This document shows, one piece after another, positions 13,614 to 34,597 of a DNA stretch of 64,000 bases. A program made the position numbers and the translations under genes. The DNA is taken from positions 3,136,001 to 3,200,000 of the forward strand of contig JASGHJ010000002.1 of NCBI GenBank assembly GCA_047602405.1, given 5' to 3'. Positions within the stretch are counted from its first letter, which is position 1. Each line of letters opens with the position of its first letter. The stretch comes from Anaeromyxobacteraceae bacterium. GTDB lineage: Bacteria > Myxococcota > Myxococcia > Myxococcales > Anaeromyxobacteraceae. The notes below the pieces were generated by a model. That model was not told where the DNA came from and ran no database searches. It saw only the letters and a program-made list of their open reading frames with translations.

Positions 13614-13801
13614 GCCCCTGCAGAGCGCGTGATTGGGCCTCGAGTCGTTTGGGCCGACTTTGAACCAAGCGGAGCGTCCGACCACACCCATGTGCAAGCT
13701 CCCAGCTTCGAGGGAGAAGCCTACGGGCGCTGGTGACACGGATGCCCCACCTGTAGAAATACAGGTCCAAGCAACCGGGCCACACGGCTCACGCGGGGGG
13801 C
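13614..13801 (+). ncRNA. ssrS: 6S RNA
   Basis: ~190 nt non-coding segment with paired ends (gcccctgcagagcgcgtg / cacggctcacgcgggggg-c), tttgaacc core, directly upstream of ygfA and followed by a T run. Confidence 0.8.
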
Positions 13802-13850
13802 TTTTTTTCTGTCCTCGGACCTGACCAGGCCCACCCAGACGAAGGCGTCC

Positions 13851-14414
13851 GTGCGCGCGGAGGTGATCGCGCGGCGCGCGACGCTCTCGCAGGACGCGCA
13901 CGCGGCGCTGTCGCGGGCCGCCTGCGAGCGCCTCCTCGCCCACCCGCTCCTCCGCGAGGCCCGCACCGTGGCCCTCTACGCCGCCCTCGGCAAGGAGCTC
14001 GACCCGGCCGGCGCCGCGGACGCCCTCCTCGCGCGCGGCGTCCGCGTCGTCTACCCGCGCCTCCGCGCCGGCGAGCGGCGCATGGCCTTCGCGGCGTGTC
14101 CGCGCACGGCGCTCGTCGTCGGGCCGCTGAAGGCGCTCGAGCCGCCGCCGGACGCGCCGGAGCTCGACGGCGCCGAGGTCGACGTGATCGTCGTCCCCGC
14201 GGTCGCGTTCACGCCCGACGGTCATCGCCTCGGCCGCGGCGGCGGCTACTACGACGCCACCCTCGCCGCCGCGCCGCGCGCCCGCCGGGTCGGCCTCGCC
14301 TTCGACCTGCAGGTCGTGCCCGCGCTGCCGCGCGAGGACCACGACGCGACGGTCGACGCCGTCGTCACCGAGCTGCGCACCCTCTCCCCCGCCTCCGGAG
14401 TGCCCACGCGATGA
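13851..14414 (+). CDS. ygfA: 5-formyltetrahydrofolate cyclo-ligase
   Basis: VPAVAF...GHRLGRGGGYYD, HDATVD. Confidence 0.93.
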   Translation: MRAEVIARRATLSQDAHAALSRAACERLLAHPLLREARTVALYAALGKELDPAGAADALLARGVRVVYPRLRAGERRMAFAACPRTALVVGPLKALEPPPDAPELDGAEVDVIVVPAVAFTPDGHRLGRGGGYYDATLAAAPRARRVGLAFDLQVVPALPREDHDATVDAVVTELRTLSPASGVPTR

Positions 14415-15206
14415 AGATCCTGTTCCTCGGCGACGTGTTCGCGAAGCCCGGCCGCAACGCGGTGACGCGCCTCGTGCCGAAGCTGATCACGACGGAGGGA
14501 CTCGACCTCGTGGTCGCGAACGCCGAGAACGTCGCGAACGGCTCGGGCGTGACCCCGGAGCTCGCCGAGGAGCTCCTCGCCGCGGAGGTGAACCTCCTCA
14601 CGAGCGGGAACCACATCTGGTCGAAGCGCGAGAATCATCCCGTACCTCGAGGCGCCGGGCTCGAAGCTGCTCCGCCCCGCGAACTACCCGAAGGGCAGCC
14701 CCGGCCGCGGCAGCGCCATCGTCGAGACCCCGGACGGCCGGAAGCTCGGCGTCGTGAACGTCGAGGGGCGGGTGTTCATGAAGAACCTCGACGACCCGTT
14801 CCGCCGCGCCGAGGAGGAGGTCCAGGCGCTCAAGGCCCAGGGCGCGGTCGCGATCCTCGTCGACGTGCACTGCGAGGCCTCGAGCGAGAAGAACGCGCTC
14901 GGGCACTTCTTCGACGGCCGGGTCTCGGCGGTCGTCGGCACGCACACGCACATCCAGACCGCCGACGAGCGCGTGCTCCCCGGCGGCACCGCCTACATCA
15001 CCGACGTCGGCATGTGCGGCCCGTGGGACTCGGTGATCGGCGTGAAGAAGGAGCTCGTGCTCGACCGGTTCCTCACGCAGCGCCCGGTGGGCTTCGAGCC
15101 CGCGCGCCGGGACGTGCACCTGCAGGGCGCGATCATCGAGATCGACGAGAAGACCGGGAAGGCCCGGTCGATCCGGCGGGTGCAGGAGCGGCTGCCGGAC
15201 GAGTAG
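14411..15206 (+). CDS. ymdB: TIGR00282/YmdB metallophosphoesterase (+1 frameshift at 14632-14636, probably artefact)
   Basis: LFLGDV, NAEN, TSGNH, DVHCEASSEK, GTHTH, TDVGMCGP; removing one A from GAATC joins the two frames. Confidence 0.9.
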
Positions 15207-18268: not shown

Positions 18269-18320
18269 CCGTTCGTCCCGAGCGTAGGCCCGCGCAGCGG
18301 GCCGGAGACGAGGGACGCCC
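18269..18320 (+). repeat. REP-like element copy
   Basis: Nearly identical to 15236-15290 with the stem one bp shorter on each arm. Confidence 0.85.
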
Positions 18321-19055
18321 TACCTGATCCCGAACACGAGCTCCACGCTCGTCGAGACCTCGAGCTCGCCCGGCTCGACCGGCGCGCCCTGGTCCTCCGC
18401 CTTCCCGCGCATCGCCATCGCCATCATCGGCATCGGCACGGGACGCCCGCCCCCGCCCTCGTCGATGGAGAGCACCTCGCCGAGCCCCACGCCCGCGGCG
18501 GTGGCGAGCGCCTCCGCCTTCGCGCGCGCGGCGACGACCGCCTTCTGGAGCGCCTCGCGCTGCGCCGGCCCCGGGTCCTCCCGCTCGAACGACACGCCAT
18601 CCACCGAGTTCCCGCCCACCGCGGTGATGCGGGAGAGGATTCTGCGGGAGGTCGGCGAGCTTTCGCACCGTGATGCGCGCGGTGTTCGTCGCGGTGTAGC
18701 CGGTGACCGCGCCCTGGCGCCCGTTCACCCAGGGTCGCTCGGCGGCGAGCTGGAACTGGCTCGTCTGGATGTCCTTCTCGGCGACGCCCGCCTTCGCGAG
18801 GTCCGCGAGCACCGCGCGCATCCGCGCCTCGGCGTCGGCGGTCGTGGACTTCACGTCCTTGCCGGTGATCTGCACGCCGGCGGTGACGCGGGCGATGTCC
18901 GGCTTCACCTGCACCTTGCCCTCCCCCGTGACGCGGATGGTGCGGAGCGGCTGGGCGGGCTGGGTCATGGTCGGCGGCGGTGGGCGAGGCGTCTGCGCGG
19001 CGGCCGGGCCGGCGCAGGCGGCGAGGGTGAGGAGGACGGCGGCGTGGGTTCGCAT
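18320..19055 (-). CDS. SIMPL/DUF541 periplasmic protein (+1 frameshift at 18638-18642, probably artefact)
   Basis: TIRVTGEGKVQVKPD, DIQTS, A..AARAKAEALA, PGELEV. Confidence 0.88.
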
Positions 19056-19196: not shown

Positions 19197-19273
<77 letters not shown>

Positions 19274-19276
19274 CAT

Positions 19277-19326
19277 AAGCCCCCGTCACTACTAGGGATT
19301 CGTCCCGGGGTGACGGGGGCTTCTTC
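19277..19326 (+). terminator. Hairpin terminator after tRNA-Pro
   Basis: aagcccccgtcac...gtgacgggggcttcttc. Confidence 0.7.
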
Positions 19327-19486
19327 GTGCCCATGCGCGGTGGGGTGACGAACGGGGTGACGGCGTCGCCCGCGCGGCGCTGCTCGGCCTCTCAGTGCAC
19401 ACGGTCCTGACGGCCGCCGCGACCATCGGACAACCCGCGATCGACATGGCCCTGTAGTAGCCTGTACCGAACGTGAGGACCTCTCG

Positions 19487-20658
19487 ATGATCCACCATCT
19501 CTGGATGAAGAACTTCGGCCCGTACGAGAGCGCTGACGTGGAGCTCGGCGGGTTCAACGTGATCCTCGGCACGAACGGCTCAGGGAAGTCGCTGCTGTTC
19601 GGGGCGCTCAAGGCGATCGGCCGCATCGCGCGCTTCCCCCTTCGCTCTGCACGGCCCCACCTGGATGGCTACCCGACTCGTACCGGTCACGTGACCTTCG
19701 ACGAGATCGTCCACCGTTGTGACACCTCGCGCACGATGCGCCTCGGCGTGAAGTTCACCACGAAGGAGGTCAGCGGGGAATACGAGGTCGCCGTCGGTCA
19801 CTGGCACAACCCCGGCGGAGTCGTAGTCTCGGAACGCCTCCACGCCAAGAATGCACTGGGGGAACTGAAGATCAGCGCCCACCCCGACGGCAGCCTCGAT
19901 GCTGAGCCAGCATTGTCGATGCCCACCGGGAGGTTCCGTACCCCCCGCGTCGTCTCAATCCCTGGCCTCCTCTTTCGCTCCAGGGATCCCAGGGAGGCAG
20001 CGATCGCGGAGCAGGTGCAGAAGGCTCTCTCTGAGAGGACGACCATCTACAGGTTCGACCCGACGGCACTCAAGGCGCCCGCGGAAGTAGGCAAGGCGCT
20101 TTCACCCACGGGCTACAACTTCGCTACGTACCTCGATCAGAATCCGAAATCAAGCGGGAGGCAAGCAGGAGTTTGACGCGCTGTTGGATCGGTTCAGATC
20201 CGCGTGCCCGCACGTCGAGGACATCTTGCTGCCCTTTGAAGAAGGGCCGTCGGCTAGCACACCCCGGAAGCGACTCGCCTTGGTCATGCCCGGTGAATCG
20301 ACCCCGAATCCCCGGCGACCTGGAAAGCGACGGGACGATCCTCTTGCTCGCGTACGCGTCGCTCCTGCACGGCCACCGCGCTCAGGAGACTCTTTGCATC
20401 GAGGAGCCTGAGAACGGCATTCACCCGAAGGCTGTGGCTCATCAGGTCCGAATGCTGCGCCAGCTCTCACAGCCCTACAATGACCGACCTGGCGCCCAGG
20501 TACTCATCTGTACACACTCCAAGCGCTTCTTCGACGAGGTGAAGGACGACCCCTCGGTTCTGCGCCTCGTTCGGAGGGGTGGTGACGGGCGCTCGTCGGT
20601 CGAGACACCGAGCCCAACTCAGGTCGCTGCTCTGGCCGGTTGGGCTGGGTTGAGTTGA
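19487..20658 (+). CDS. ABC-class (AAA_21/AbiEii-like) ATPase; two +1 frameshifts at GAATC sites, probably artefacts
   Basis: MKNFGPY, Walker A GTNGSGKS, signature ESDG, Walker B CIEEPENGIHP, CTHS spread over ORFs 19487, 20184 and 20173. Confidence 0.85.
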
Positions 20659-20664
20659 TGACAG

Positions 20665-20692
20665 TTGACAGCGGCCTCGGGAATCGCATAAT
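20665..20692 (+). promoter_or_regulatory. Sigma70-like promoter
   Basis: TTGACA-N16-CATAAT just after the ATPase stop. Confidence 0.65.
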
Positions 20693-20696
20693 TCAG

Positions 20697-20827
20697 CGCG
20701 TGGGCTGGCGTCCCCCTTAGTGACGCCGTACCGTAGTCCCCGTGGGTTGGCGTTCCCCTTAGTAACGCCTTGAGATTTCAGGTAGTTAAGGCCGCCTCCG
20801 TCCCATCGACGGGGGCGGCCTCTTTCT
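20697..20827 (+). ncRNA. Candidate ~130-nt small RNA: two 29-nt hairpin repeats plus terminator
   Basis: Repeats 20699-20727 and 20741-20769 with a compensatory C-G to T-A change, bounded by promoter and terminator. Confidence 0.55.
20789..20827 (+). terminator. Intrinsic terminator
   Basis: AGGCCGCCTCCGTC-ccatc-GACGGGGGCGGCCT followed by ctttct. Confidence 0.75.
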
Positions 20828-20884
20828 AGCCCCTGTGACACGCTCGTCTTCCACTGTCAGTCGCGCCTGCTAGGCTGCGGAGCC

Positions 20885-21703
20885 ATGTGGAAGAGGACCC
20901 GCCTTCTGATCTGGGGAAAGACTTACCCGGAGTTCTCGAAGCGGTACTACGAAACGGTCTGCACCGGCGCGATCCACGGCGAGACGGGTCGCCTGATCCG
21001 GATCTACCCAATCACGCTCCGGTACCTCGACGAGCACTTCCGCAGCTACCAGTGGATCGAGGCAGAGATCGAGCGCAACACGAGCGACTTCCGCCCGGAG
21101 AGCTACAAGATCAAGCAGAACACGATCACTCTGGGTGACTTCCTTGATCCTCAGAAGAAGGACGGCTGGAAACGGCGAGCAGAGTGGATTCTCCGGCCCG
21201 GCAACGTCTTCACGTCAATGGAGGCGCTGAGAGAGGCGGAGCGAGCCGACCGCACGTCACTAGGCGTGATCAAGCCCAAGAGCATCAAGGGCTTCTACGC
21301 CCGCACGCGCTCCCCTGAGGACAAGGAGGAGTGGGAGCAGAAGCGCCAGCTAGCCATCACCCAGAAGGACCTCTTCGTGGACACGGAGAGCAAGGTCGGC
21401 GAACTGGAGTTCCGCTGGGTGGACTACCGGGTTGAGTTTCGCTGCGATGACCCGGCGTGTTCAACGCTGCACGACTGCTCGATCCTGGATTGGGGAATCT
21501 ACGTCCTCGATCGGAACCAGGAGAGGAAGAAGGGCAGCTACAAACTCGCGGAGGCGGACGTCCTCGCCAAGCTCCAGGAGATCGCGGATCCGCAGAAGAA
21601 GGACATCCACTTCTTCCTCGGCAACACTAAGGACCACTCGAACAACTTCTCGGTGGTGGGTCTCTTCTACCCGCCGATCGAGAGGCAGGGGCAACTGCTC
21701 TAG
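20885..21703 (+). CDS. Conserved hypothetical protein (KTYP...Y.ETVCTG...RIYPI family, possibly dual OB-fold)
   Basis: Motifs KTYP, ETVCTG, IRIYPI, DFRPESY, CxxxxC...H...DW, FFLGN, GLFYPP; family assignment recalled, not searched. Confidence 0.7.
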   Translation: MWKRTRLLIWGKTYPEFSKRYYETVCTGAIHGETGRLIRIYPITLRYLDEHFRSYQWIEAEIERNTSDFRPESYKIKQNTITLGDFLDPQKKDGWKRRAEWILRPGNVFTSMEALREAERADRTSLGVIKPKSIKGFYARTRSPEDKEEWEQKRQLAITQKDLFVDTESKVGELEFRWVDYRVEFRCDDPACSTLHDCSILDWGIYVLDRNQERKKGSYKLAEADVLAKLQEIADPQKKDIHFFLGNTKDHSNNFSVVGLFYPPIERQGQLL

Positions 21704-22128
21704 AGGTTGTGGATCCTCACGCCCGCGAGCCCGGCCGCGCTTTTGGCCAGGATCGACCGATGGCACTTCGCGGGGTTGGCCTCGGCGCACAGGAGCGCAG
21801 AGCGCTCACCCGCGGCAGCGCCGATCACCGCCTCTGTGATCTCGGGGTGCTCGTCGAGGTGGGCACTGTAGAGGGCGAGGCACCGCTCCAGGTGGTCACC
21901 AGCCTCGTGCCGGAACGGATTCCCGGCTGACCTGATGTGGCGGTACGCGATCCCAGCGCGTCCGAGGGCGGCGCTGAGCGGCGTCTTCGAGAAGCCCTTG
22001 CGGCGGGACAGCGGGAGCTCGCGCACGTCGATCACCTGGGTGACGCTTGCTTCCCGGAGCACACGGACGAAGCCCTGGAGCGTCCGCCCTTCGTAGCCGA
22101 TCGTGAAGAGGACGTCTTTCTGGCTCAC
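21700..22128 (-). CDS. DUF488 family protein
   Basis: FTIGYEG, IDVRELPLSRRKGFSK..L, LLCAE....CHR. Confidence 0.88.
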   Translation of the reverse strand: MSQKDVLFTIGYEGRTLQGFVRVLREASVTQVIDVRELPLSRRKGFSKTPLSAALGRAGIAYRHIRSAGNPFRHEAGDHLERCLALYSAHLDEHPEITEAVIGAAAGERSALLCAEANPAKCHRSILAKSAAGLAGVRIHNL

Positions 22129-22215
22129 GGCGAAGTGTATACGGCTTCACCGCGGCGGGCGCCAGAATCACAGCGCCTCGCACCGGACGATCGAGCCCGC
22201 TATGATCGTCCAGCC

Positions 22216-22494
22216 ATGATGAGCAAGACCTGGACCCTCGTGATCGCTCACACGGCCGAGGTCGGCGTCCGCGTGCTCCTGCTAGAAGCCGCCCTAGCAG
22301 CAGACTTCGGCCGGTGGCTCCGCGCGAGCGGGTGGCATGTCAGGTTCGAGGACACGACCGCGAGGAGCCCCTACGAGCTGCGAAGGACCAAGGACGAAGA
22401 AGACCTCGCCGGTGGACTGGCCTCCGCCTACTCGCAGTGGGCCCGAGTCGCGCGACCCAGCCTCGCGTTGGCGGACCTGGGACGACATGGCTGA
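22216..22494 (+). CDS. Hypothetical protein (~92 aa)
   Basis: ATG after a TATGAT -10-like box; overlaps the next ORF start. Confidence 0.5.
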   Translation: MMSKTWTLVIAHTAEVGVRVLLLEAALAADFGRWLRASGWHVRFEDTTARSPYELRRTKDEEDLAGGLASAYSQWARVARPSLALADLGRHG

Positions 22495-23002
22495 ACCCAA
22501 GCTCCTCAGAGTGGACTCGCTTGACCCGAACGTCGAGCGTGCTCAAGCACGTCGGCGCCGGCAACGCGGTGTTTCCGCCTGGATCGCTCAGTGGGTGACG
22601 CCCGACGTAGCGGACCATCCGCTTGAACTCGCGAATCCATCCGTCCGAAGCGGCGTGGTCCTCGTGGCCTCTTCTCGGGCCGCCGAGGACAAGGTCTGCG
22701 AGAGCGCGAGAGCGATCTACCTAGCCCAGCTTGCCGAACCGTCGTTCATCCTAGAGGTCTATCGACTGGAGCACGCGCCTCGGCCCCGACGTGGGCCCTC
22801 ACCGGTCACTGCGATCTACGCGATGCTCGAAGCCAAGATCGCGGGCGAGCGACGTCGAGCCCCCTTCGTCGGGCGCTTCCGCTTCGGTCGCGATCCTTGC
22901 CTTTACGTGAGGCGGGTCAAGAACCTCCGCGAACGCCAGGACGGCTCGCTCGACTGGGACGAGATCCCAATCCCTCCGGTCCCGGGTGATCCCAGCGAGT
23001 AG
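22487..23002 (+). CDS. Hypothetical protein (~171 aa)
   Basis: Coupled to the upstream ORF; globular composition. Confidence 0.5.
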   Translation: MAEPKLLRVDSLDPNVERAQARRRRQRGVSAWIAQWVTPDVADHPLELANPSVRSGVVLVASSRAAEDKVCESARAIYLAQLAEPSFILEVYRLEHAPRPRRGPSPVTAIYAMLEAKIAGERRRAPFVGRFRFGRDPCLYVRRVKNLRERQDGSLDWDEIPIPPVPGDPSE

Positions 23003-23017
23003 GGCGACGGCGCCTCC

Positions 23018-23317
23018 CTACTCGCTGTGCAGCGCGAGCAGCTTGCTCACCGCCGCCGCGTGCCCGGCGTGGTTCGGGTCGTTGAGGGCGGGGTCCTTGC
23101 GAAGCTCCGCGAGGGCGGCCTTCCGGTCGGCCCGGGGCGGGGGCGGGGCCGCGGAGGCGGCGACGAGGTCCGACTCCCTGGCCGTGAGGTTCACAAGGCG
23201 CTCGGCCTCGGCCGCGCGTTCCTCGGGGAGCATCCCCCGGTCCTCCATCAGGCGCTTGCGGGAGGCCGCGATCTCGGCACGGGCGGAGCGGATGGCTTCG
23301 AGCTGCTCGGGGGTCAT
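23018..23317 (-). CDS. Small protein with scaffold-like C-terminus
   Basis: GGAGGT RBS, ATGA coupling; ends ALAELRKDPALNDPNHAGHAAAVSKLLALH. Confidence 0.7.
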   Translation of the reverse strand: MTPEQLEAIRSARAEIAASRKRLMEDRGMLPEERAAEAERLVNLTARESDLVAASAAPPPPRADRKAALAELRKDPALNDPNHAGHAAAVSKLLALHSE

Positions 23318-23868
23318 GGTGTCACCTCCAGGATGCCTCTGCGGATCTCCTCGCGGATCTCCTGGGCGCGTTTCGTGATCGAAAGGTCCCCGACGTCGCT
23401 CCGCACGCGCTCGAAGTCGAAATCGGACGAGATCGACTCGCCGCCGTGACGGATGGCGAGGAGCAGGGCCGCAGCCTCGCGGAACGCGTCGATCGCCTGA
23501 GGCTTCCGGGCGCGTAGCGCTGCGAGCACGAGGCCCCGCTCCTCCTGGACGATCTCGCCGCTGAGCTGCTCGACCTCCCGGCGGACGTGCCCGAGGGCGT
23601 GGTCGAGCGCGGGCACCTGCTCCCGCAGTTCGGTCTCGTGCTCGAAGGCGCGAGCGAAGGCAGCCTTGGCCGCCTCGGCGCGGGCCTCCGCGTCCGCCGT
23701 GCCCTCCAGGACGGCCGTGACCGCCAGCTCCTTCGAGGCGGCGGAGGTCTCCTGCGTGAGGAGGGCCGCGCGCTCGACCTCTCCGCGCACCCGGTTCAGC
23801 TCCTTCGAGATGCGGTCGTGGACGGCCTGTCGCTCGGCGAGGCGCGTACGCTTCTGTGCGAGTTCCAC
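23314..23868 (-). CDS. Coiled-coil hypothetical protein (184 aa)
   Basis: AAGGAGG RBS; heptad-rich helical sequence. Confidence 0.75.
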   Translation of the reverse strand: MELAQKRTRLAERQAVHDRISKELNRVRGEVERAALLTQETSAASKELAVTAVLEGTADAEARAEAAKAAFARAFEHETELREQVPALDHALGHVRREVEQLSGEIVQEERGLVLAALRARKPQAIDAFREAAALLLAIRHGGESISSDFDFERVRSDVGDLSITKRAQEIREEIRRGILEVTP

Positions 23869-23878
23869 GGGCGCCTCC

Positions 23879-24259
23879 TTACGCGGTGACCGGGTAGTCC
23901 GCCGCGCGGGCGAGGATCGCGGCCTTGCGGCCTTCGAGGGCGGCGTCGGTGAAACTCGCGAGGAACTTGGCCTTGGTCGCGTTCCACGCGGTCGCGGCGT
24001 CCGAGCCGCCCGAGAGCTGCCGCGCGTAGAACGGGGCGATCTCCTCGTTCAGGCGGGAGGTCGAGATCCCGTCCGCCTGCGGCGCCGTCGCGCCCGCAGC
24101 GACGAGGACGCGGAACTTCGCGGAGGCCAGCGCCTCGGGCTGCGAGAACTGCGGGTTCACGCTCGCGAGGGCGGCGGCCCAAGCGGCCTCGGGCGAGTTG
24201 CCGGCGGCGACGGACGCCTTCACTGCCGCCACGAGGTCATCGAACTCCTTGGTCGTCAT
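23879..24259 (-). CDS. Ala-rich helical hypothetical protein (126 aa)
   Basis: AAGGAGG RBS, strongly GC3-biased codons, internal repeat AGNSPEAAW/GGSDAATAW. Confidence 0.75.
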   Translation of the reverse strand: MTTKEFDDLVAAVKASVAAGNSPEAAWAAALASVNPQFSQPEALASAKFRVLVAAGATAPQADGISTSRLNEEIAPFYARQLSGGSDAATAWNATKAKFLASFTDAALEGRKAAILARAADYPVTA

Positions 24260-24279
24260 CGGGTGTTCCTCCTTGGACC

Positions 24280-24612
24280 TCAGCCTCGTTCGTCGCGTGG
24301 TATCGCTTCAACGGGCGGTGACGATCCCAGAGGGCCCCACCGCTGGCGGATGGTCTGGGGGTGCGGGACCTCCTGCGGGAGGTACCCGAGCGCGAGGAGG
24401 CGCCTCCGGGTTGCCAGAGCAGCCTCCCGGGACGAGAAGCCCGAGGCGACGAGGTCCTGGTAGATGGCCGCGCCCACGCGCCTCCGGGCCTCGCGGGCCA
24501 CCGCCGGGCGCGACTCGACGAGCTTCCGCAGCTCGGCCAGTGCGGCGGGCTCGGGGAGCCTGCCGGCAGCGAGGGCCTCCAGGGCGTCGGCGAGGAGCGC
24601 GGCGTCGGTCAC
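24280..24612 (-). CDS. Hypothetical protein, possible HTH
   Basis: GTGA coupling to the upstream ORF; GFSSREAA...PQTIRQRW. Confidence 0.55.
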   Translation of the reverse strand: MTDAALLADALEALAAGRLPEPAALAELRKLVESRPAVAREARRRVGAAIYQDLVASGFSSREAALATRRRLLALGYLPQEVPHPQTIRQRWGPLGSSPPVEAIPRDERG

Positions 24613-24845
24613 GTCCCGCTCGCCTCCCGGAGGAGTTGGCGCCCGAGGAGGTCGAGGAGGTCCCGGTGTGCCGCGATCTCCTCCCTGTGGGCAGTAGGCG
24701 CGAGGCGCACCGCGCGCGAGAGGGCTCGGCAGGCGTCCGCCACGGACGACTCGCACGCGAGGACCCGCTGATCGGGCTCGGGCACCTCGCGGCGCTCGAA
24801 GGGGATCGGCCTGGGACGACCGGAGCCGGCGGGGGTGTTCGCCAC
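24609..24845 (-). CDS. Hypothetical protein (78 aa)
   Basis: GAGG RBS; part of the coupled operon. Confidence 0.55.
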   Translation of the reverse strand: MANTPAGSGRPRPIPFERREVPEPDQRVLACESSVADACRALSRAVRLAPTAHREEIAAHRDLLDLLGRQLLREASGT

Positions 24846-24849
24846 GTCC

Positions 24850-25434
24850 TCACCTCCTCAGCGACCGACGCACGGCCACCGCGTGCTTGCCGCGCTCCTC
24901 GGACTCAAGCCACGCGTCGAGCCTGCGGCGGTCCTCCTCGGGCGTTGGCGGCCGAGTCGGGCGGAGCACGGGGCCCGGCTCGCGCGCGGCTGCCTCGATC
25001 TGTGGGCGCCACGCGGTGAGCATCTCCGGGGGCACGTCGGGCGCGACCACTGCGGCGACCTCGGGCCAGGGCAGGCCACCCCGGAGGAGCGCCGCCGCGT
25101 GCCGCACGTCGGCATCGCGGAGCCCCTGGCGCCCCACCAGCGGCTCCGGGAGCGGTCGCGAGGCCGGCGGGCCTACCTCGGCCGCTCGCCTCCCGACCTC
25201 CCCCCGGTAGCGCTCCACCGCGTCGGGGTGCACGTTATCGGCGACGAGGTCCTCGCGGATCGCTGACCACGGGGTTCCCGCCCGCAGCGCCCTCGCCGCC
25301 TGGACAACCTCCTCCTCCCTGAGGTCATGGCGCCACGGACGCTTCGAGCGCGGCAGCCCGCGCGGAGGGATCTCGATCGTCGGGGTCGAGGGCTTCGTGT
25401 TCGAGTCTCTGAACTTCTGCCGCGGGTCGGTCAA
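24850..25434 (-). CDS. Hypothetical protein with duplicated short helical motif
   Basis: TTGA overlap with TerL stop; AARALRAGTPWSAI and AAALLRGGLPWPEV. Confidence 0.55.
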   Translation of the reverse strand: MTDPRQKFRDSNTKPSTPTIEIPPRGLPRSKRPWRHDLREEEVVQAARALRAGTPWSAIREDLVADNVHPDAVERYRGEVGRRAAEVGPPASRPLPEPLVGRQGLRDADVRHAAALLRGGLPWPEVAAVVAPDVPPEMLTAWRPQIEAAAREPGPVLRPTRPPTPEEDRRRLDAWLESEERGKHAVAVRRSLRR

Positions 25435-26745
25435 AGCGTGCTCCTCGGGTGGAGGCTGCTCCGCACGCTGAGGACGCGCGGCTCGGCCCACGTGCGGCCG
25501 GTGCTCGGGTCGCGGTAGACGGGCGACATGTCGTGATCGGCTAGGCACAGGGCCGCGTAGCGGATCGAGTCCGCCGCGTGCGAGTGGATGTCGTGGAGCG
25601 GGGGGCCGCGCCCGCCGTGGCGCTCGTCGGTATCGCGGCGGTACATCGCGAGGTGATCAATCCCCTCGGCCGTGTACCCCTCGTCGAACACGCAGTGCGG
25701 GAGGAGCGACGCCGCCGCAGCGATCCCCTCCTCGACGCCGCAGCGGGGCGCGACCTCGACGTGGAAGCCGAGGATCTCCAGGGCTTCGAGCCGGGAGCGG
25801 CCCGAGACGAGATCGCGTACCCGGATGTCGTGGGGCGCGTAGACCGTACGGACCCCAAGAATCGCGGAGGGTGCGGCCCACGTCGGCAAGGCCGGTGCCC
25901 ACCCACTCTCGGAAGAGGAGGATCCGGTGCTCCCCGGCGATGCTCTGCCCGACCCACGCGGAGGTGGCGTCTGCGATCCCGAGGTCGAGACTCGCCCACG
26001 CGTCGGCCTCGTCGATCCAGGGCACCGCGGGCAGGATGCGGCCGGCGGCGCGGAGGGCGGTGATGATCGCCCCGTAGATTGAGCCGGGCGGCGCCGCGGA
26101 GAAGTCGCACTCGAACTCCCGCGCGTACGCGTCGGCCGGCATCGTCGCGCGCGCTGCGGCCAGCTCCCCCGCGGGCAGCACGCCCGTCTCGGAGGCTCGG
26201 AAGAGGAAGTGGCTCCAATCCGGGAGGCCGCGGGTGTCCTGGATGAGCCGGTACAATGGATCGCGTCCCTTGGGCGTGCCGATGAAGATCGCCCAGCCCA
26301 GCCGATCGGCGAGGGCGGGGCGGACCACGCTCGCGAACACGCTGTCCTCCATGAGGGCGTACTCGTCGAGCACCACCCCGTCGAGCCCGACGCCGCGGAG
26401 GCTGTCCGCGCCGTCGAGTGCGCCCGCGAGGAAGACGGCCGAGCCGTTCGGGAACACGACGCGAAGCTCCTGCTCGAACACCTGGACGCCGGGGACCGGC
26501 CGGACGTGGTCCTTGAGGCGCTGCCACGCGACGACCTTGGCCTGCGTACGGGTCGGGCCGACGTAGGCGCAGAGAGCGCCCGCCTTCCGCAGGGCGGTGT
26601 CGGCCAGCTCCGCGATCGCGGCCTCCGTCTTGCCGCCGCGACGGTGGACGACCGCGACCGTGAACCGGCGCCGCTCGCGGTGGACGCGCTCCTGCCAGGG
26701 CCGCGGGACGTAGCTGAGGCGGACCTCACGAGTGAACGGTTTCAT
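25431..26745 (-). CDS. terL: Terminase large subunit (+1 frameshift at 25859-25863, probably artefact)
   Basis: YVPRPWQ, HRRGGKT Walker A, PTRTQAK, LRG...VVLDEY, IGTPKG, REFECDF, LDLGIAD, HDIHSHAADSIRY. Confidence 0.92.
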
Positions 26746-27491
26746 CCGTAGAGGACCTCTTCGAGGGTGAGACTTCCTTCTTCTGAAAGTGCTCGGCCTG
26801 CGATCTCGGCTGCTTGGGCTTCGCGGGGTGACCGCGGGGAATCGACCGGGGTGACATTGACCGCGGCGAGGGCGGGAAGCGGATCACGCGACGGGACCCC
26901 CGTGTTCACCACGAGCACCTGCACGGCGCCGGGGCCGATCACCACCTGCGTGTCCTGGTAGAGGTTCGCGAGCTTGTTGACGAGGTCCTCCGCTCGCAGC
27001 GCGGCGTTGCGATCGCCCTCCTCTTCGGCTTCGCGCCCGAGTCGTTGGATGCGAGCGATCTGGCCCTCACGCGTCACCTGGGCAGCGCGCCGCGCACGCT
27101 CGCGGAGGAGCGCGACAAGCTCGACCACCTCGGGCCGTCTGAGGACCATCCACGGCGCCCCGCCACGAGGGGACAGCCCGGCTGCGCGCGCGGCTGCCGG
27201 CAGCGAGGCTCCGCCCGCGTGCTCCTCCGCGAGCCGCGTCGCCTTGGCCGTGCACCTCGCCCGTGCGTCCGCGATGCGCTCCTCAAGCGCGTCCGCGTCG
27301 AGCTGCTCGACCGGGAGGGTCGTCCCCTCACCTTCCCTCAGCCCACTGCCGGCCGGTGGTGGGGATGGTGGGGTTTCGGGCCCACTCGCCAACCGCTCAC
27401 CTACCTCGACACTCTCATTTCTCTCCGCCACCGTCGTCTCCCTCTCCGCCCGAAATGTTGAAGGTGAATTTCCTTCCGCGTTGGCAACCAC
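26742..27491 (-). CDS. terS: Probable terminase small subunit (true start probably downstream of the ORF start)
   Basis: Directly upstream of and coupled to TerL; HTH-like AARAAGLS, then LRRPEV...VTRE..IARI...AEEEGDRNAALRA..L.K...LY. Confidence 0.7.
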   Translation of the reverse strand: MVANAEGNSPSTFRAERETTVAERNESVEVGERLASGPETPPSPPPAGSGLREGEGTTLPVEQLDADALEERIADARARCTAKATRLAEEHAGGASLPAAARAAGLSPRGGAPWMVLRRPEVVELVALLRERARRAAQVTREGQIARIQRLGREAEEEGDRNAALRAEDLVNKLANLYQDTQVVIGPGAVQVLVVNTGVPSRDPLPALAAVNVTPVDSPRSPREAQAAEIAGRALSEEGSLTLEEVLYG

Positions 27492-27520
27492 CCCTAAGAC
27501 TCCACCATCCCCACCACCGG
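27353..27520. repeat. 19-bp perfect inverted repeat, candidate replication origin
   Basis: ccggtggtggggatggtgg (27353-27371) / ccaccatccccaccaccgg (27502-27520) around an AT-richer spacer at the end of the primase-helicase gene. Confidence 0.6.
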
Positions 27521-30491
27521 ACTCTCCACGTGGTAGAGGGTCCGGCCGCGGACGATTCGGGCGCGGAGCACGAGGTCCAGGTTCGCGAGGGGCTGGTCCA
27601 CGAGAGTACCGAGGAAGTGACCCAACGCGGGCGCGCTGTGCACCCGCTTCCGGTCGGTCGCCTCAATCGCGTCGCGCAGCGCCGCCTCGTCGGTGTCCGA
27701 GGGTGGAAGGTCGATCCCTCCGTTCACTCGCCGGACCACTTCCGTGCATGAGAACTCCCGCGCGGCCGGAACGGCACCGCCCGGATCCACCACCCCGAAC
27801 ACCGCGGCGAGCGCGACGAGAGCCGAGACCTTCGCCTTCTGTTCCGGGCTCGACTCCGCGACCTCGGCCCGCTTATCGAAGATCCCGCTCTCCCCGGCGA
27901 AGGCGAGCGGCCACGTCACGAGTCGGTCCACGTCGCTGCCGAGGCCGAGGCTCGGCCCTTCCTCGCGTGCCCCAGCCGCGAACCACGCCCGCTGGATCGT
28001 GAGGAGCGCGTGGAGGACCTCGACGCGGATGGTCTGCGCATACGCAATCGGATCAGCGTTCCTGAACCTCCGCTGCTCGGGGCACGCCTCCTTCGCGAGG
28101 AGGTCGATCTTCACGAACCGCCGGATCAGGTCCGATGCGACCTCGACCTTGTTCCCCGTGAAGACGAACAGCGAGCACGTGGGCACGTCCACGTCCTGCG
28201 TCAGCCCGAGGATTCGCTGCGTGTAGACCGGCGACGTGATGATGGGCGACAGGACCGGGTTGTCGATCGTCGCGCCATCCGGGACGTTGTCGAAGCAGAT
28301 CATCGTCGGGCTGCGCATCAGCGTCGCGAGGATCTGCTTGCGAGCCTCGCCCTGATCCTCGGGCAACGTCTGCACCGCCATGTCTCGGCCAGTGAGGACG
28401 GTGTGCATCATCCTCGCGAGCGTCGTCTTCCCCGTGCCCTGGACCGTGGCGTTGATCAGGATCGCTGGGCCCTGGCTCGTCGCCTTCCTGGAGACCCCGG
28501 TGAGGAGCGCCGCGATCGCAGCGGCCCCGTCCACCCCGGCGTCCTTGAAGAAGCACCTCCGCGAAGAGCAGCTCGCGGATGCGATGCGCCGCTGCGACCG
28601 CCTCGTCCCTCGTCGGCGCCGGCTTCACCTGCGGGAACCGCCAGCCGTCGAATGACAGGAAGAGGCCCGTCGCGTCGTCGAGGCCCTCGCCTGAGAGGAG
28701 CCGACCGCTCGGAGTGTGAACAGGGTGGAGAACGAGCCCGGTGACGCGCGGCGCGCGCTTGTCCGGGAGGTCCAGCATGAAGGTCGGGAGCTTGTCGAAC
28801 GGAACCTCCATCGGGACCACAGCCCCCTTCTCGCCGCGCCGGTAGAGGCACACCGACTTCTCGATCGCGAGGAGCATCGAGACCTTCGTGTGCGGCACGA
28901 AGAGGACCTGCTTGGGAGGCGGGAGCCGGTCGTCCGGGGACCGGTGGGCGTTGTCCGGGTGCTCGGAGTTCGGGATCTCGTCCTTGGCGACCCGGACGTA
29001 GGCGCGGTCGATCCGGAGGAGTCCGTCCTCGATCAGCGCCGCCTCGACCTGGGGCAGCATCGAGTTGTAGGACATCGGGTTCCACAGGACCGGCGCGCGG
29101 TCCTTCGCGACGAGCGTGAGCCGGTCCTTCGACCTCGCCGCCTTGTAGGACGCCGAGCGCTCCGCAAAGAACACCTTCCAGGCGTTCGTGATCGCCCGCT
29201 TCTTCCCGATGTTCAGCTTCTCGACCACGAAGGTGAGCGCGTCCTCGAGCCCGACGGGATCGAGGTGCGCGTCATAGACGACCTTCGCCCACGCCTCAGT
29301 TGCGAGCGGCTCGTCGCGTTCGTTCGCGTCGAGTGCCAGTTCGACGAGGGCCCGCCTAACCTCCTCCAGCGACACCCCGGAGCCCGTCCGCGAGTAGATG
29401 CGCTGGAAGTAGCGCTCCTCGCCGGCCTTCGCCTTCTCCGCGCCGGCGCCGTGCGGGTACGAGATCAGGAGGTGTCGCGTCTCGCGGTAGCTGAGCCCGC
29501 GCGCCTTGAGCATCGAGCCCAGCGACATGTCGAGGCCGGACCTGGAATCGTCGCCGAGCCCCGTGCCTCGCCCCTGCCACCGCGCCTCCAGGAGCACGTC
29601 CGCCGCCCTGAGAGCGTCGAACCGCTCCGCCAAGGCGAGGCGCTCCCCCTCGTCGAGCGGGGCCGTTTCTTCCGTGAAGCTCTCTTCGCGGGGCGCACGG
29701 GGCGACTCCTCGGGAACAGGCTCGGGGAGGCCGTCCGAGAGCTGCGCGATCGTGTACCGGGCCCCCGCGTCGGCGTGCAGCACCGCCGCGAGACGCGCGA
29801 CCTTCGGGTATCCCTTCGCCATCTTCTTCTTGGTCGGGTGGTTCACCGTCCCGGCGAGGCGGAGTATGCGATCGACGTTGTGGGTCCCTGGGTCCCCGCC
29901 CCACCGCGCAACGAGGCGCCGGTTCAGGTGCTCGACGTCCGCGTGCTCCACAGGCTCCGCGAGCCGCCACAGGGCGGAGATGCCGTTCCCGGAACTCCAC
30001 ACGACCGTGGGTGGCGCCGGGCTCGCGGCCATCTCCGCGGCCACGATCTCGTGAAGGTAGGAGCGAGCTCCCGAGTAGCCGCCCTTCTGCGCCATGAAGG
30101 CGTCGGGGTCGATCTCGACGTGGGCGAACCGCGCCGCGCCGATCTCGGCCTTGGATGGCTTCTTGAAGACGCGCTCCGCGGGCGCGTTCACCGAGAAGTA
30201 GAGCTGCTCGCCCTTTCGGTTGTACGCGCAGGCGATCTCCGCGCCCTTCGCCCGCGCCGCGGAGTCCGACGCATCGATGGTGAAGCCCTTCATCCCGTCC
30301 GGCCCGAGGTGGCAGACGACCACGAGCCCCCCGAGCTGCTCCAGAAAGGCCGCGACGGCAGACTGGTCCGGCGCGACGGGTGGCGGCGTGATTCGCGTCT
30401 TGCTAGGCTCCTGGGAGTTGGTCGCTCTCGATGCTGTCCTGACGCGCTCGCCCTGCCCGGCGGGCGCGTCTGTTTCTTCGAGGCTCGTCAT
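27494..30491 (-). CDS. Primase (RepB/AEP-type)-helicase fusion, ~1000 aa, +1 frameshift near 28555
   Basis: LYFSVN, HVEID, SSGNG...WRL, DRILRLAGTVN (primase); QGTGKT and CFDNV (P-loop helicase). Confidence 0.85.
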
Positions 30492-30919
30492 GGGCGGGCC
30501 CTCCTGCGAACGCGGATGCAGCCCGGCGCGATGTTCCGGTCGGTCCGTCTCGCCTCGCGCGGCAGCCCGCCGACGTCGAGCATGTTCACCTCGCGCCGCA
30601 GGCGGTCTCCCCGCAGCCCATGGAAGGCATGTAGCCACTCGCGCACGAGAGCCCGCATTGCCGTGAGGTCCTCGCGGTGCATCAGGACGTCACTCGGGTG
30701 CGTCCACGCCCCCACGGCGCCGTCGATCCACCCGACCAACCGTGACACTGGCGAGGTGTCACGCCGGAGCGAGGCGAAGTTCTCCAGGGGTGGGAGCGTC
30801 AAGGTCAGCCCGAACTGCGCGTCCTCTTCCGCCCACGCTGCTTGCGCGGGAGAGCGCCGTGCGAGGCGCCAACGGCCGAGCAGCGGGCGCGGGTTGATGA
30901 TGCGTTGGCGAGTCGTCAT
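30488..30919 (-). CDS. Hypothetical protein (143 aa)
   Basis: Lies between AlpA and the primase, ATGA-coupled. Confidence 0.6.
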   Translation of the reverse strand: MTTRQRIINPRPLLGRWRLARRSPAQAAWAEEDAQFGLTLTLPPLENFASLRRDTSPVSRLVGWIDGAVGAWTHPSDVLMHREDLTAMRALVREWLHAFHGLRGDRLRREVNMLDVGGLPREARRTDRNIAPGCIRVRRRARP

Positions 30920-30928
30920 GGCTGCCCC

Positions 30929-31174
30929 CTACCGAGTGGCGTCGGCGAGCCCGCCGCGAAGGTTGGCAGCCCCGCGGCGCGCGGACTGCGGGCGCGCGAT
31001 CTGGCGGTCTACCCACGCGAGGATTTCTGACTCCAGCCAGGTGCGGCGTTCGGCGACGTAGGACGGCGCCGGGAAGTCCCCCGCTCGGCACCGGCGCCAG
31101 ATCGACACCCTGTGAAGCCCTGTCAGCCTCTCCGCGTCCCGGATCCCGACACGGCGGTCCGTTGCTGGTTTCAT
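30929..31174 (-). CDS. alpA: AlpA-family regulator/excisionase
   Basis: TGLHRVSIWRR...GDFPAP......WLESEILAW. Confidence 0.9.
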   Translation of the reverse strand: MKPATDRRVGIRDAERLTGLHRVSIWRRCRAGDFPAPSYVAERRTWLESEILAWVDRQIARPQSARRGAANLRGGLADATR

Positions 31175-31448
31175 CGCGCACCCGTTCCACGCCCCGATTG
31201 CTGGATCGGAAGGCCGTGCGGGCTACTCGTGGGGCGCGGTTCAGTTCAGACGCGCAAGCCGCCGGCCATGCTGTGTCATGGTGGGCGCTGCCTGTTTGAC
31301 TGATTGACTGGTTTGGCTGGTTTGCGCTGAGCGATGCCGCCGACTCAGGGGCCGATTGAGGTGGGCCGACCTAACTCGGGCACAGTACGCCCGCCGGGAC
31401 GTCCGACGCAACTACCGGCTGCGAGCGAGTGAAACCGACCGGACTACC

Positions 31449-32777
31449 CTACTTCCGAACCGTGTGCAGGAACGCGACCTTGGCCTGCTCGGGCGTGACG
31501 ATGCGCTCGACGTAGGCCGCCCACCGCGCGAGCGCCTCGCGGCGCTCCTCCAGGTAGTCGCCACGGTCGTACACCCGCGCGATGCGGCCGAGCGAGTGGT
31601 TGAGGCACCTCTCCGCGATGTGCGGCGCCACCCCGAGCGTCTCGCCGAGGTGCGTGCGGACCGTCCTCCGGAGGTCGTGCGGAGTCGGGTGAGGCTCCGC
31701 GAAGGCGAGGAGCGGCTTCTCGCCCTGGAAGAGCTTGCGCATGGCGGCGATCAGCGCCTTGTCGGTGTAGCGCCCGGTCTCGGAGTTCGGGCTCGCCATG
31801 ACGAACGTCGAGCCCTCCGCGTAGTGGCGGAGCTTCTCGAAGAGCGCGGCCACCGCGGGGGTGAGCGGAACCACGAAGGGCTTCGCCCGCCCGCGCATCT
31901 TCGGCTTCATCTTCTGCCGCTCCACCGGGATCGTCCACGTGCCCGCGTCGGTGTCGATCTCGTCCCACGTCGCGCCGAGCAACTCTCCCGGGCGCACGCC
32001 CGTGAGCAGCACGATCCGGAGGCCGATCCGCGTCTGCGGCGCCATGCTGCTCTCGTCGAGCGCGCGCCAGAACGCAGGGATCTCCCCGACCGAGAGGAAG
32101 CGCTCGGACTCGTTCTCGACCACCCCGAGCGCCTCGGGGTCCAAGGCGTCGGCAGGGTTCGAGGGAACGAGCCCGTGGCCCCGAGCGAAGCGGAAGATGC
32201 CCTTCACGTAAGCGAGGGTCCGCCCTGCCTGGGTCCGCGAGCCGCGCGCCGCTACGTGCTTCACGATCGCAGCCACCTCCGGCGGCGTGATCGCCTTCAC
32301 CGGGCGCGCGCCGAGCGAAGGGAGCACGTCCCTCGTGACAGCCCTCCTCACTTCGGGCGCCGTCCTCCACCCGAGCGCAGTCGCCACGTGCTCGAAGTAG
32401 TCCTTCGCGACGACCTCGAAGGTCGCCTCGCCGGCCAGCGTCGGCTCGGGACGATGGCGCGGACGGTTCGCCCGCAGCTCCGCCTCGACTTCGGTCAGCC
32501 GACCTTCCTTGTGGGCAGCCTTGAGCCGTTCCAGCCACCGACGCGCCTCGCCCAACGTCACGAACCCGGGGCGCTCCGCCTTCGTCCACTCGCCGATGGT
32601 GATCACCCTCCCCGCACTCGTGCAGTACCACCGGAAGACCTTCGTGCCCGTGGGGAGCACGCGCAGGCGCAGCCCGGCCGCTGCGGGGTCGGCCACCTCG
32701 TAGCGCCCGGCCTGCGGGCGCAGCGCCTCGATACGGGGCGGCGTGAGCGGCGGGATCTTCGTGAGCTTCTCGACCAT
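31449..32777 (-). CDS. int: Tyrosine integrase with N-terminal arm-binding domain
   Basis: GLRLRV.P.G.K.F arm domain; LLTGVRPGE, HDLRRT, LNH...VYDR catalytic residues. Confidence 0.96.
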   Translation of the reverse strand: MVEKLTKIPPLTPPRIEALRPQAGRYEVADPAAAGLRLRVLPTGTKVFRWYCTSAGRVITIGEWTKAERPGFVTLGEARRWLERLKAAHKEGRLTEVEAELRANRPRHRPEPTLAGEATFEVVAKDYFEHVATALGWRTAPEVRRAVTRDVLPSLGARPVKAITPPEVAAIVKHVAARGSRTQAGRTLAYVKGIFRFARGHGLVPSNPADALDPEALGVVENESERFLSVGEIPAFWRALDESSMAPQTRIGLRIVLLTGVRPGELLGATWDEIDTDAGTWTIPVERQKMKPKMRGRAKPFVVPLTPAVAALFEKLRHYAEGSTFVMASPNSETGRYTDKALIAAMRKLFQGEKPLLAFAEPHPTPHDLRRTVRTHLGETLGVAPHIAERCLNHSLGRIARVYDRGDYLEERREALARWAAYVERIVTPEQAKVAFLHTVRK

Positions 32778-32979
32778 GGCGGCCTCCGGAACCTGTCACC
32801 CCGCGGGCGACGCTTTCGGCCGCCATTCTGTCACCCCGGATCGCGCGCGGGGTGACAAATCGACCTCGCCAACGCTGCCGGTTGCAGGTGGTTGCGCGGC
32901 AGCTATCTTCGCTGGGCCTCAGCCATTTGGAGGGTCGCGACGCAACTGCCTGCAACCGCCAGAAACGGGGCCGAAATCC

Positions 32980-33025
<46 letters not shown>

Positions 33026-33341: not shown

Positions 33342-33917
33342 GTGCCTACTACTTCGAATCCCGCCGCCTTTCCCCGCGGTCCGGTCATCGACAACCAGCA
33401 GACACAGTTTAGATGGGAGCAGTCCACCTCAGGAGTAGCTTGGGAAGTCGAGCTTCGAACAGTTAACGGCGCGCTCGTAAACAGGAGTGTTGCAGGGGAG
33501 ACCTTCGCGATCCGCCGTGAACTGTGGCCTGCGCGCAGGCTCCGCGGGATGCCCGGCAAAGGGCGAGTCGCACACAACGCCTGCTTATGCCTAGCACAGG
33601 GATTCACTAGGTGTGGCGTTGGGCGGGAGATCTACCGGCGAGAAGAGGCGCTGTACCGCGCCTGGGGAGCCAAGGAGATTCACACGGAAGCCGCTTGCGA
33701 TGCCCTGAAGTCCGGCGTTTGGTTCGATTTCGGCTTCAAGGTCGCCCCCGACGAACTGAACTCGTTAGGTGTGATCTGGAGGGAACTGCAGGCGGAGATC
33801 CTGAAGCGAAGCGGGAACCAGTTGCGCCAACTAGGCGAAACTTGGGACACTTGGGAGCCTGAGTTCCGTCGCTTCATCGGCGAGCGCGAATCGGTTCCGA
33901 TGTACCGGGTGCTGTGA
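33342..33917 (+). CDS. Hypothetical protein, possible GNAT fold
   Basis: FTRCGVGREIY (motif-A-like) and VWFDFGF; lower GC. Confidence 0.55.
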   Translation: MPTTSNPAAFPRGPVIDNQQTQFRWEQSTSGVAWEVELRTVNGALVNRSVAGETFAIRRELWPARRLRGMPGKGRVAHNACLCLAQGFTRCGVGREIYRREEALYRAWGAKEIHTEAACDALKSGVWFDFGFKVAPDELNSLGVIWRELQAEILKRSGNQLRQLGETWDTWEPEFRRFIGERESVPMYRVL

Positions 33918-34597
33918 TGGAGTGGCATACACTTTACGTGATGTCGCCAGCAGAGGTTGCCTACGGGCGTGTGATCGCCGTGGTCACTCTGCGCGAGGCC
34001 AAGGTCCACCTGAGCGTGAGCGACCCCGAGTTCGCTCCCCTTTTGCATCGCTTGTTCGAGGAGGACTTCGAGGAAACTGTCGGGTTCCCTGGGCGCTTGA
34101 TTCGCGAGAAGGCGGGGACGCTGAACGCGTTTCGTGCGGCCGCCCGCTACCTGAACTCGGTCTTGGGGCTTGGAGTGGCGGTGCAGCAGGTTGCATCGAC
34201 ACAAGCTGTTTCCTCGGCTCGCCTCTCCTCGGTAGAGGCCGAGCGGATGGCACAAGCTGCCTTGTTCGTGCTCAGTGCCCGCGATCACGAGCGAGTGCTG
34301 CAGGCGATGACCTTGTGGCGTGCGGTGATGAGGTACAAGGCTGAACTCGCTTTGAGATATGGGTGCTTCAAACGGTTAGACCGGGAGCGCAGGGCCGTCG
34401 AGATGCGCAGGTTCCGGCAAGAGACACTGGTAGGGGCTCCCTCGGTGAGCGCGTTCCCGTCCCGGGTTCCCCTCGCGCATGCAGGGCCGGGCGCGGTACG
34501 CCCGACGACTGAAGGCCGGAGTCTCGACGACCTGGTCGCGGGTGCGGTCGTTGCCAAGGACTTCCTTGAGCGCCCACAGGGAAGGGCTCATGCCTAG
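33914..34597 (+). CDS. Hypothetical protein (227 aa)
   Basis: Overlaps both neighbours; lower GC. Confidence 0.55.
   Translation: MMEWHTLYVMSPAEVAYGRVIAVVTLREAKVHLSVSDPEFAPLLHRLFEEDFEETVGFPGRLIREKAGTLNAFRAAARYLNSVLGLGVAVQQVASTQAVSSARLSSVEAERMAQAALFVLSARDHERVLQAMTLWRAVMRYKAELALRYGCFKRLDRERRAVEMRRFRQETLVGAPSVSAFPSRVPLAHAGPGAVRPTTEGRSLDDLVAGAVVAKDFLERPQGRAHA

Follow-up and report, generated by a model that had tools for sequence, protein, structure and literature searches.

The window analysed here, a stretch of 64,000 nucleotides, contains a short unit of promoter-like, repeated and terminator-like sequence between an ATPase gene and a gene for a 272-aa protein. This arrangement raises the question of whether the unit is transcribed into a small functional RNA and, if so, which partner the RNA serves. 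The initial annotation had proposed a layout similar to that of type III toxin-antitoxin (TA) loci, with an RNA of ~130 nt acting on one of the two flanking proteins.

The promoter is of the sigma-70 type and reads TTGACA-N16-CATAAT on the plus strand (20665–20692, with TTGACA at 20665–20670 and CATAAT at 20687–20692). It is present as annotated and matches the consensus in 11 of 12 positions; transcription is predicted to start at about 20698–20700. One promoter-like site was found between 19200 and 22600, as compared to 0.3 ± 0.6 in 50 shuffles. The host genome (6.16 Mb, 74% GC) contains six sites on both strands that match TTGACA-N16..18-TATAAT with at most one mismatch, and 20665–20692 is one of these. 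Downstream of two of the other sites, a tRNA-like sequence is found.

The two 29-nt direct repeats with a period of 42 nt are located on the plus strand at 20699–20727 and 20741–20769. They are identical in 26 of 29 positions. Repeat 1 consists of an 8-nt leader ending in GGG-CT, a 6-bp stem (20707–20712/20722–20727) and a C-rich loop (20713–20721). Repeat 2 is organised likewise in leader and loop, and its stem (20749–20754/20764–20769) carries a C-G to U-A change. Linker 1 (20728–20740, plus strand) separates the repeats and contains GTAGTC at 20733–20738. Two of the three differences between the repeats, C/T at unit position 14 and G/A at unit position 24, make up the compensatory stem pair that had been described; the third, C/T at unit position 7, lies outside the stem. 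All three are C:G to T:A transitions. If three substitutions fall at random within the 29 nt, both partners of one of the six pairs are struck in 4.4% of cases, and a single compensatory pair is therefore weak evidence. A compensatory change in a palindrome may also come from template-switch correction.

The nine nucleotides of the loop are identical in both repeats, and the 9-mer CCCCTTAGT occurs at these two places of the genome only. No further copy of the 21-nt hairpin was found in the host genome at up to three mismatches. Among 33,768 host hairpins with a 6-bp Watson-Crick stem and a 7–11-nt loop, seven pairs share the same loop at a distance of 30–60 nt; in three of the seven, repeats 1 and 2 among them, the stems differ. 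The pentamer GTAGT follows both repeats, as had been noted, at unequal spacing: 5 nt after the first (20733–20737) and 12 nt after the second (20782–20786). The tetramer TAGT occurs four times in 133 nt, whereas its frequency per base in the genome is 0.00034; two of the copies belong to the duplicated loop.

The unit ends with an intrinsic terminator on the plus strand (20789–20827). Its arms (20789–20802/20808–20821) form the 14 bp that the annotation had counted, with −30 kcal/mol, and enclose a 5-nt loop; the U tract of the tail (CTTTCT) is modest. The ORF of 272 aa begins 58 nt after position 20827, again in agreement with the annotation. No plausible ORF was found inside the unit. The observation of a promoter, two hairpin repeats and a terminator is real.

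At the RNA level, each unit opens with a leader that includes GGG; the 6-bp stem with the loop CCCCUUAGU comes next, followed by a variable insert and by GUAGU(C/U). In the predicted ensemble, hairpin 1 is well formed with a pair probability of 0.95–0.97. The corresponding value for hairpin 2 is 0.38–0.43, and a rival fold has a probability of ~0.5. The latter spans an imperfect inverted repeat (20763–20788), which includes the second GTAGTT and provides the alternative hairpin. For linker 1, pairing with the 5′ GGGCU of repeat 1 has a predicted probability of 0.59–0.78. The folding z-score of the whole RNA is −3.55, which was reached by none of 200 shuffles and is largely owed to the terminator. 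In the predicted ensemble, the terminator hairpin forms almost completely; the best terminator-free fold is 10.8 kcal/mol worse (−47.1 vs −57.9), and no fold competing with it was detected in that ensemble. A short RNA product is therefore to be expected, and a self-contained, structured transcript of about 130 nt, as had been claimed, is likely, as predicted from the sequence. As regards the suggested pseudoknot, an H-type geometry between the GGG of the leader and the CCC of the loop is possible in both units, but the second stem would comprise 3 bp only. The same 3-bp GGG/CCC option exists in 738 of 6,756 (11%) comparable host hairpins.

Does this RNA have relatives? The Rfam search that the annotation had called for did not identify a family. 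At the gathering score, the window gave tRNA only; at E ≤ 10, the region 20640–20900 gave four weak matches, all far below the cut-offs and centred on the terminator, and ToxI was not matched. By blastn, no homologue of the unit was found in 60 relatives, nor in plasmids, phages and E. coli. The 21-mer, allowing for two mismatches, yielded three single matches in coding-like DNA of 367 other genomes of the class, as compared to 14 for the reversed control. Two RNA models, both of which were built from this single locus, were applied to 91 genomes of the family. The whole-RNA model gave 6 matches and the single-unit model 14; all were inspected and no homologue was found. The same holds for the models on 14 and 11 related loci. 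The best model hit (R1, E 5e-4; L055 in G003) covers the 3′ part only and is a trailer behind the att site of a tRNA island. A loop-pair pattern applied to 180 genomes of the phylum matched 15, which is below the control; of the 24 matches listed, five were examined together with their flanks and the others only as matched strings. Four pattern scans of viral contigs gave 0, 20, 13 and 6 loci, all of which were inspected without finding a homologue, and two metagenome loci and one GTDB-contig locus were unrelated. By these comparisons the unit appears as a singleton within the searched collections, which may omit very near relatives, while exact patterns overlook diverged copies. The covariation test that the annotation had envisaged consequently comes down, without homologues in these collections, to the one compensatory pair. 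No paper on such an RNA was found in the literature searched by concept, supplements aside. As far as these searches go, the unit is an undescribed variant.

The closest known layout is that of type III TA loci, in which promoter, repeats, terminator and toxin gene follow each other (excerpts of PMC5086642, PMC3401426 and PMC8860590). Their antitoxin arrays comprise 1.9–5.6 repeats of 31–62 nt, and the ranges given for ToxI, CptI and TenpI cover the unit with its about two copies of 42 and 48 nt (PMC3401426, Table 2). These RNAs, as described there, and the unit also share a predicted start at the first repeat, an intrinsic terminator before the gene and the possibility of an H-type pseudoknot, from which the unit deviates by its second stem of only 3 bp. 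Unlike ToxI as described there, the unit lacks an A-rich tail between its repeats; ToxN cuts between two A's. In the type III loci covered by these excerpts, the RNase ToxN, CptN or TenpN follows, whereas here a dual-OB protein follows that is not co-conserved with the repeats. The order, the unit length and the copy number thus fit the proposed layout, but the RNase toxin and the co-conservation are missing. Since both of the latter were tested and not found, the unit is not a member of type III, although any function it may have would resemble that of a type III antitoxin.

A toxin of this kind was also sought elsewhere in the host. Neither ToxN (PF13958) nor Abi_2 (AbiF-type HEPN) had a match in the host genome; the control for Abi_2 was positive in 2 of 14 genomes. 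CptN and TenpN gave no match in the host either, and these blanks are weak because both controls were silent. The genes beside the unit are assigned to families other than HEPN or Abi_2. In the AvcID system, shut-off of transcription by a phage depletes the RNA AvcI, which guards the deaminase AvcD (PMC10511110), and in AbiF and AbiV an RNA antitoxin guards HEPN nucleases (excerpt of PMC13064643). As far as these accounts go, AvcID, AbiF and AbiV have in common with the model proposed below that a small ncRNA lies by a defence gene and that an enzyme is held until shut-off. They differ in that here no deaminase or HEPN gene is adjacent and that the candidate, an ATPase, lies upstream instead of downstream. 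The pseudo-ToxI of phage PhiTE is a toxin-less antitoxin mimic and, like the unit, consists of antitoxin-like repeats on a mobile element (PMC3475682). In the unit, however, no likeness to ToxI was detected, and no toxIN was found in the host.

Further RNA types were considered as well. In CsrB/RsmZ sponges, repeated hairpins with GGA loops lie between promoter and terminator and bind CsrA; the unit shares with them hairpins with one loop motif in this position. Its loops are C-rich and lack GGA on the sense strand, there are only two units, and CsrA had no match in the host (control positive in 3 of 14). A reading as CRISPR mini-array or RNA anti-CRISPR is unsupported: no CRISPR family was matched in Rfam at E ≤ 10, the linker comprises only 13 nt and, allowing four mismatches over 21 nt, is not matched by any other place of the genome, and a simple 20-mer scan found no CRISPR array in the host. 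A tRNA-like fold was rejected: at relaxed threshold, ARAGORN reported only a mispaired structure in which the terminator stands in for the T arm. A mimic of the 16S anti-SD was discarded, as the end of the host 16S, CCUCCUUUCU, gave a loose match only.

The genomic setting of the unit is that of a mobile element. The host itself belongs to Myxococcota, as judged from homologues and gene content, and is presumably Anaeromyxobacter-like. The unit lies inside a satellite-like element of 13.75 kb integrated at tRNA-Pro(GGG), the ends of which are marked by a 46-bp repeat corresponding to the 3′ part of this tRNA. The attL core (19228–19273, plus strand) belongs to the tRNA gene at 19197–19271, and the attR core is found at 32980–33025 (plus strand). 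Arm-type motifs GGGTGAC occur by attL at 19308, 19343 and 19355, and by attR within 32801–32850. On the minus strand, the element encodes an integrase (31449–32777), a RepB-type primase (27494–30638) and the large subunit of a terminase (25657–26745); no capsid gene was detected among the 14 ORFs scanned. Integrases related to that of the element occur in at least 7 other genomes of the family. The left 3.7 kb of the element have a GC content of 64%, the remainder of 71%.

A sister element (G025/L099) has the same att arms and the same flanking ORF. This small ORF lies at the inner edge of the cargo slot (22216–22494, plus strand) and is 43% identical over 77 aa to its counterpart at the same place of the sister element. 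There, the slot is occupied by GmrSD_N and by a second gene with weak likeness to RelA/SpoT. As judged from this one sister element, the cargo slot by attL is a defence hotspot with swappable cargo. Defence hotspots of P4-like satellites, including PARIS, have been documented, and the excerpts of PMC9122126 describe the same combination of a variable slot by an att end with an ABC/AAA_21 ATPase and candidate defence genes. The ATPase here has no DUF4435/TOPRIM partner, and the RNA-like unit stands in the place of a partner gene. In comparison to P4, the present element is a terminase-carrying myxobacterial island. The region 19228–33025 appears to represent a so far undescribed family of myxobacterial satellites, with its defence hotspot by attL.

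Which of the neighbours could be the partner of the RNA? The gene of the upstream AAA_21/ABC-type ATPase (19487–20658, plus strand) occupies three frames in the assembly, with two frameshifts, and ends with a stop codon 7 nt upstream of the promoter. Five of six homologues from the database are whole (389–399 aa). The ATPase may be dead. No partner gene follows it at this locus. The subfamily (P0122–P0130) is very small: among 1.84 billion representatives, 10 were matched at E ≤ 1e-30. No further locus was found in 367 genomes of the class at E ≤ 1e-25, nor in plasmids, phages and viral contigs, the last of which gave only Walker-A matches. The ATPase subfamily is about as rare as the RNA.

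The link of the RNA to the downstream 272-aa protein, which the initial annotation had offered as a second option, was not supported. The gene (20885–21703, plus strand) matches the PADLOC model PDC-M19B with E 4e-57 and is convergent with a gene for a 142-aa DUF488 protein (21700–22128, minus strand; PDC-M19A). By HMM, both are members of the candidate system PDC-M19, the combination of DUF488 and a dual-OB protein. No Pfam or NCBIfam match was found for the 272-aa protein. Its AlphaFold model, based on 111 sequences, has a pLDDT of 90 and matches tandem OB folds. The model resembles RPA, HIN and LEF-3 (Foldseek E 5e-5 to 1e-3); a DuOB cluster matches it at TM 0.68, and the VIA comparison gave Z 5.2 and an rmsd of 5.6 for 185 aligned residues. 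ToxN-like folds are absent among the listed structural matches, which alone is not exclusionary. Judged by the model, the protein is of the dual-OB type and not a ToxN-type RNase.

The dual-OB gene probably has its own leaderless promoter and transcript, as suggested by an extended −10 element, TG-C-TAGGCT (20868–20876, plus strand), 8 nt before its ATG. An extended −10 at such a position precedes 55 of 78,623 host ATGs. For comparison, 19 homologous loci were used, of which 14 are from the class, 1 is viral and 4 belong to the 13 plasmid matches. The identity is 25–36% for 18 of them and 60% for L038; the homologues with 65–77% identity (P0002–P0005) were left out. None of the 19 loci showed a direct repeat above 18/25 upstream of the gene (22/25 at this locus). 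A promoter close to the consensus was likewise absent from the preceding 400 nt of each, as was the ATPase from the flanks covered. The look upstream of the homologues that the annotation had suggested thus gave no repeats, and the RNA unit is no regular part of PDC-M19. DUF488 adjoins the dual-OB gene in 10 of the 14 class loci. The same convergent pair is found in L047, L143, L144 and L145, and plasmids of Streptomyces, Rhizobium and Pseudomonas are among the carriers. Stand-alone dual-OB homologues without DUF488 were also observed (L038–L041). No paper on a DUF488/dual-OB defence was found in the literature searched by concept, supplements aside; a study on DUF488 with dual-OB partners reportedly exists.

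Taken as a whole, we tentatively favour a stand-alone repeat sRNA of ~130 nt that may bind a defence protein as decoy or antitoxin, either as an orphan antitoxin or as a guard of the ATPase. The strong and constitutive promoter would provide an abundant, short-lived RNA. Each unit would offer its stem, the C-rich loop and the GUAGU tail to a defence effector, with one repeat per protein, and the bound RNA would keep the effector inactive. If a phage halted host transcription, the RNA would decay and the effector would be set free, as in AvcID and as proposed for ToxIN. By elimination, the partner would be either a toxin whose gene has since been replaced in the fast-turnover slot or the partner-less ABC ATPase. 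Because no ToxN, TenpN, CptN, Abi_2, CsrA or CRISPR array was found in the host, such a partner would be lost or new. The dual-OB protein is the least likely partner, which among the local candidates leaves only the lone ATPase without a counter-argument. A new RNA-guarded anti-phage system, in which the RNA encoded directly downstream of the rare ABC ATPase would be dedicated to restraining or arming it, in the manner of a type III antitoxin for an ATPase in place of a nuclease or deaminase, is a good deal less probable and, taken by itself, quite unlikely.

The setting supports an RNA that binds a defence protein, as the neighbours match PADLOC models and the slot is a defence slot. The rare promoter, the well-formed terminator, the compensated stem change next to an unchanged loop and leader, and the unit length and copy number speak for it as well. 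Counting against it are the missing RNA homologue, the missing adjacent type III toxin, the lack of upstream repeats and ATPase in the 19 dual-OB loci, the two frameshifts of the ATPase and hairpin 2, which is only ~40% populated. In addition, the 3′ part resembles the IHF-plus-terminator trailers of tRNA islands, which favours an origin as a DNA site or as a junction. If the RNA did guard the ATPase or another non-nuclease effector, control by RNA antitoxins would extend beyond ToxN, HEPN and deaminase proteins, and the partner-less AAA_21 ATPase would be explained. If it were an orphan antitoxin or mimic, satellites would carry stand-alone decoy RNAs. The cassette is compact (3.3 kb). Defence searches mostly look at proteins, so that RNA parts in satellite hotspots are easily overlooked.

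Alternatively, the RNA could act by base pairing: its twin C-rich loops would be seeds that cover G-rich ribosome-binding sites and block translation of helper-phage, host or element genes. Identical, single-stranded C-rich loops are typical seeds, as in RsaE, LhrC and RepG. G-rich Shine-Dalgarno sequences are common before genes in the related loci, and the best site within the element, a GAGGAGG-type region near 24850 on the minus strand, reaches −19.2 kcal/mol with loop 1. However, random 13.5-kb host segments do no worse than the element in 9 of 25 cases for loop 1, in 11 of 25 for loop 2 and in 7 of 25 for the 9-nt core, and no antisense target above background was found inside the element. 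A perfect complement of the 9-nt loop exists nowhere else in the host genome. We regard this mode of action as unlikely.

Two alternatives dispense with a functional RNA, and both seem to us slightly less probable than a base-pairing sRNA. According to the first, the unit is a DNA site in which two palindromic operators and an IHF pair control the promoter, packaging or recombination, and the transcript is incidental. A palindrome recognised by a protein would be just as likely to change symmetrically in both arms, and the 42-bp period corresponds to four helical turns, which places the palindromes in phase. AbiEi, as described in the excerpt of PMC13064643, binds inverted repeats in its own promoter. 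Two IHF-like sites lie head to head, with one mismatch at 20763–20775 (minus strand) and two mismatches at 20776–20788 (plus strand) from what we take to be the IHF consensus; at up to one mismatch, this presumed consensus has 45 sites in the host, 20763–20775 included. On the other hand, no transcription regulator is encoded in the cargo slot. Moreover, repression would have nothing to control at a promoter with a terminator directly behind it and no competitive antiterminator. Full conservation of the spacers within the palindromes also argues against operators. Finally, the arm motif of the integrase is different and located at the att ends, also in the sister element; it is absent from 20660–20884.

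According to the second, the unit is a junction remnant, in which a strong promoter and a trailer of the island type (IHF site plus terminator) were left behind between two cargo modules and a short stretch was recently duplicated; it would be transcribed but functionless. It would be in line with this that the unit is a singleton in all searches, that its 3′ 55 nt are like the trailer behind the tRNA-island att site in G003 (L055), that the repeats differ exclusively by C:G to T:A transitions and that the slot turns over. However, the start site predicted for the near-perfect promoter practically coincides with the beginning of the first repeat, neither a tRNA nor an att core separates promoter and trailer, and a useless strong promoter should decay.

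An attenuator leader, in which a protein or a phage signal binds the twin hairpins and causes read-through into the dual-OB gene, is very unlikely. The covariation would then reflect a two-state switch. The order of promoter, hairpins, terminator and gene is that of a leader. Furthermore, in both units the 3′ arm of the stem can pair instead with the GUAGU(C/U) tail, the last base of which varies together with the stem pair, so that three positions change together; of the two units, only unit 2 pairs strongly in this way (−5.3 vs −0.9 kcal/mol). Yet neither fold overlaps the terminator, whose removal costs the energy given above, an extended −10 of its own precedes the dual-OB gene, and none of the 19 homologues has such a leader.

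That the repeat is a coding repeat of a 124-aa peptide on the minus strand (20467–20841) can practically be dismissed. The frame is open and preserved by the 42-nt period, but its GC3 is 0.62 as compared to 0.80–0.87 in three flanking genes, it overlaps the ATPase gene in antisense over 190 nt, it has no PHROG match, and no promoter-like site is found on the minus strand.

Some minor observations concern the surroundings of the unit. The GGGG in the anticodon loop of tRNA-Pro (19197–19271), at which the element is integrated, is the complement of the CCCC of the loop (20713–20716); the duplex would amount to −8.5 kcal/mol, a control-free value that may be a coincidence. Several genes of the window that seem to be conserved continue in another frame (14411–15206, 18320–19046, 25657–26745 and 27494–30638). 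These split genes, including the frameshifts of the ATPase, likely stem from indel errors of the assembly. The intergenic interval 13633–13824 is flanked by genes for a TPR-type and a 5-formyltetrahydrofolate cyclo-ligase-like protein, a place at which 6S RNA is usually located; an Rfam scan at gathering score gave no match there. In the region of the sister element (L099, 13194–19989, G025:C2), genes of the PIN-KTSC and HerA types lie beyond the att site and, with the GmrSD_N and RelA/SpoT-like genes of the slot, form stacked defence cargo. Just outside attR of the present element, at 33342–35012, there is a three-ORF cargo of low GC content (62%), and the two of its ORFs that were scanned have no Pfam match. 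This region is possibly the remnant of a second, older island at tRNA-Pro.
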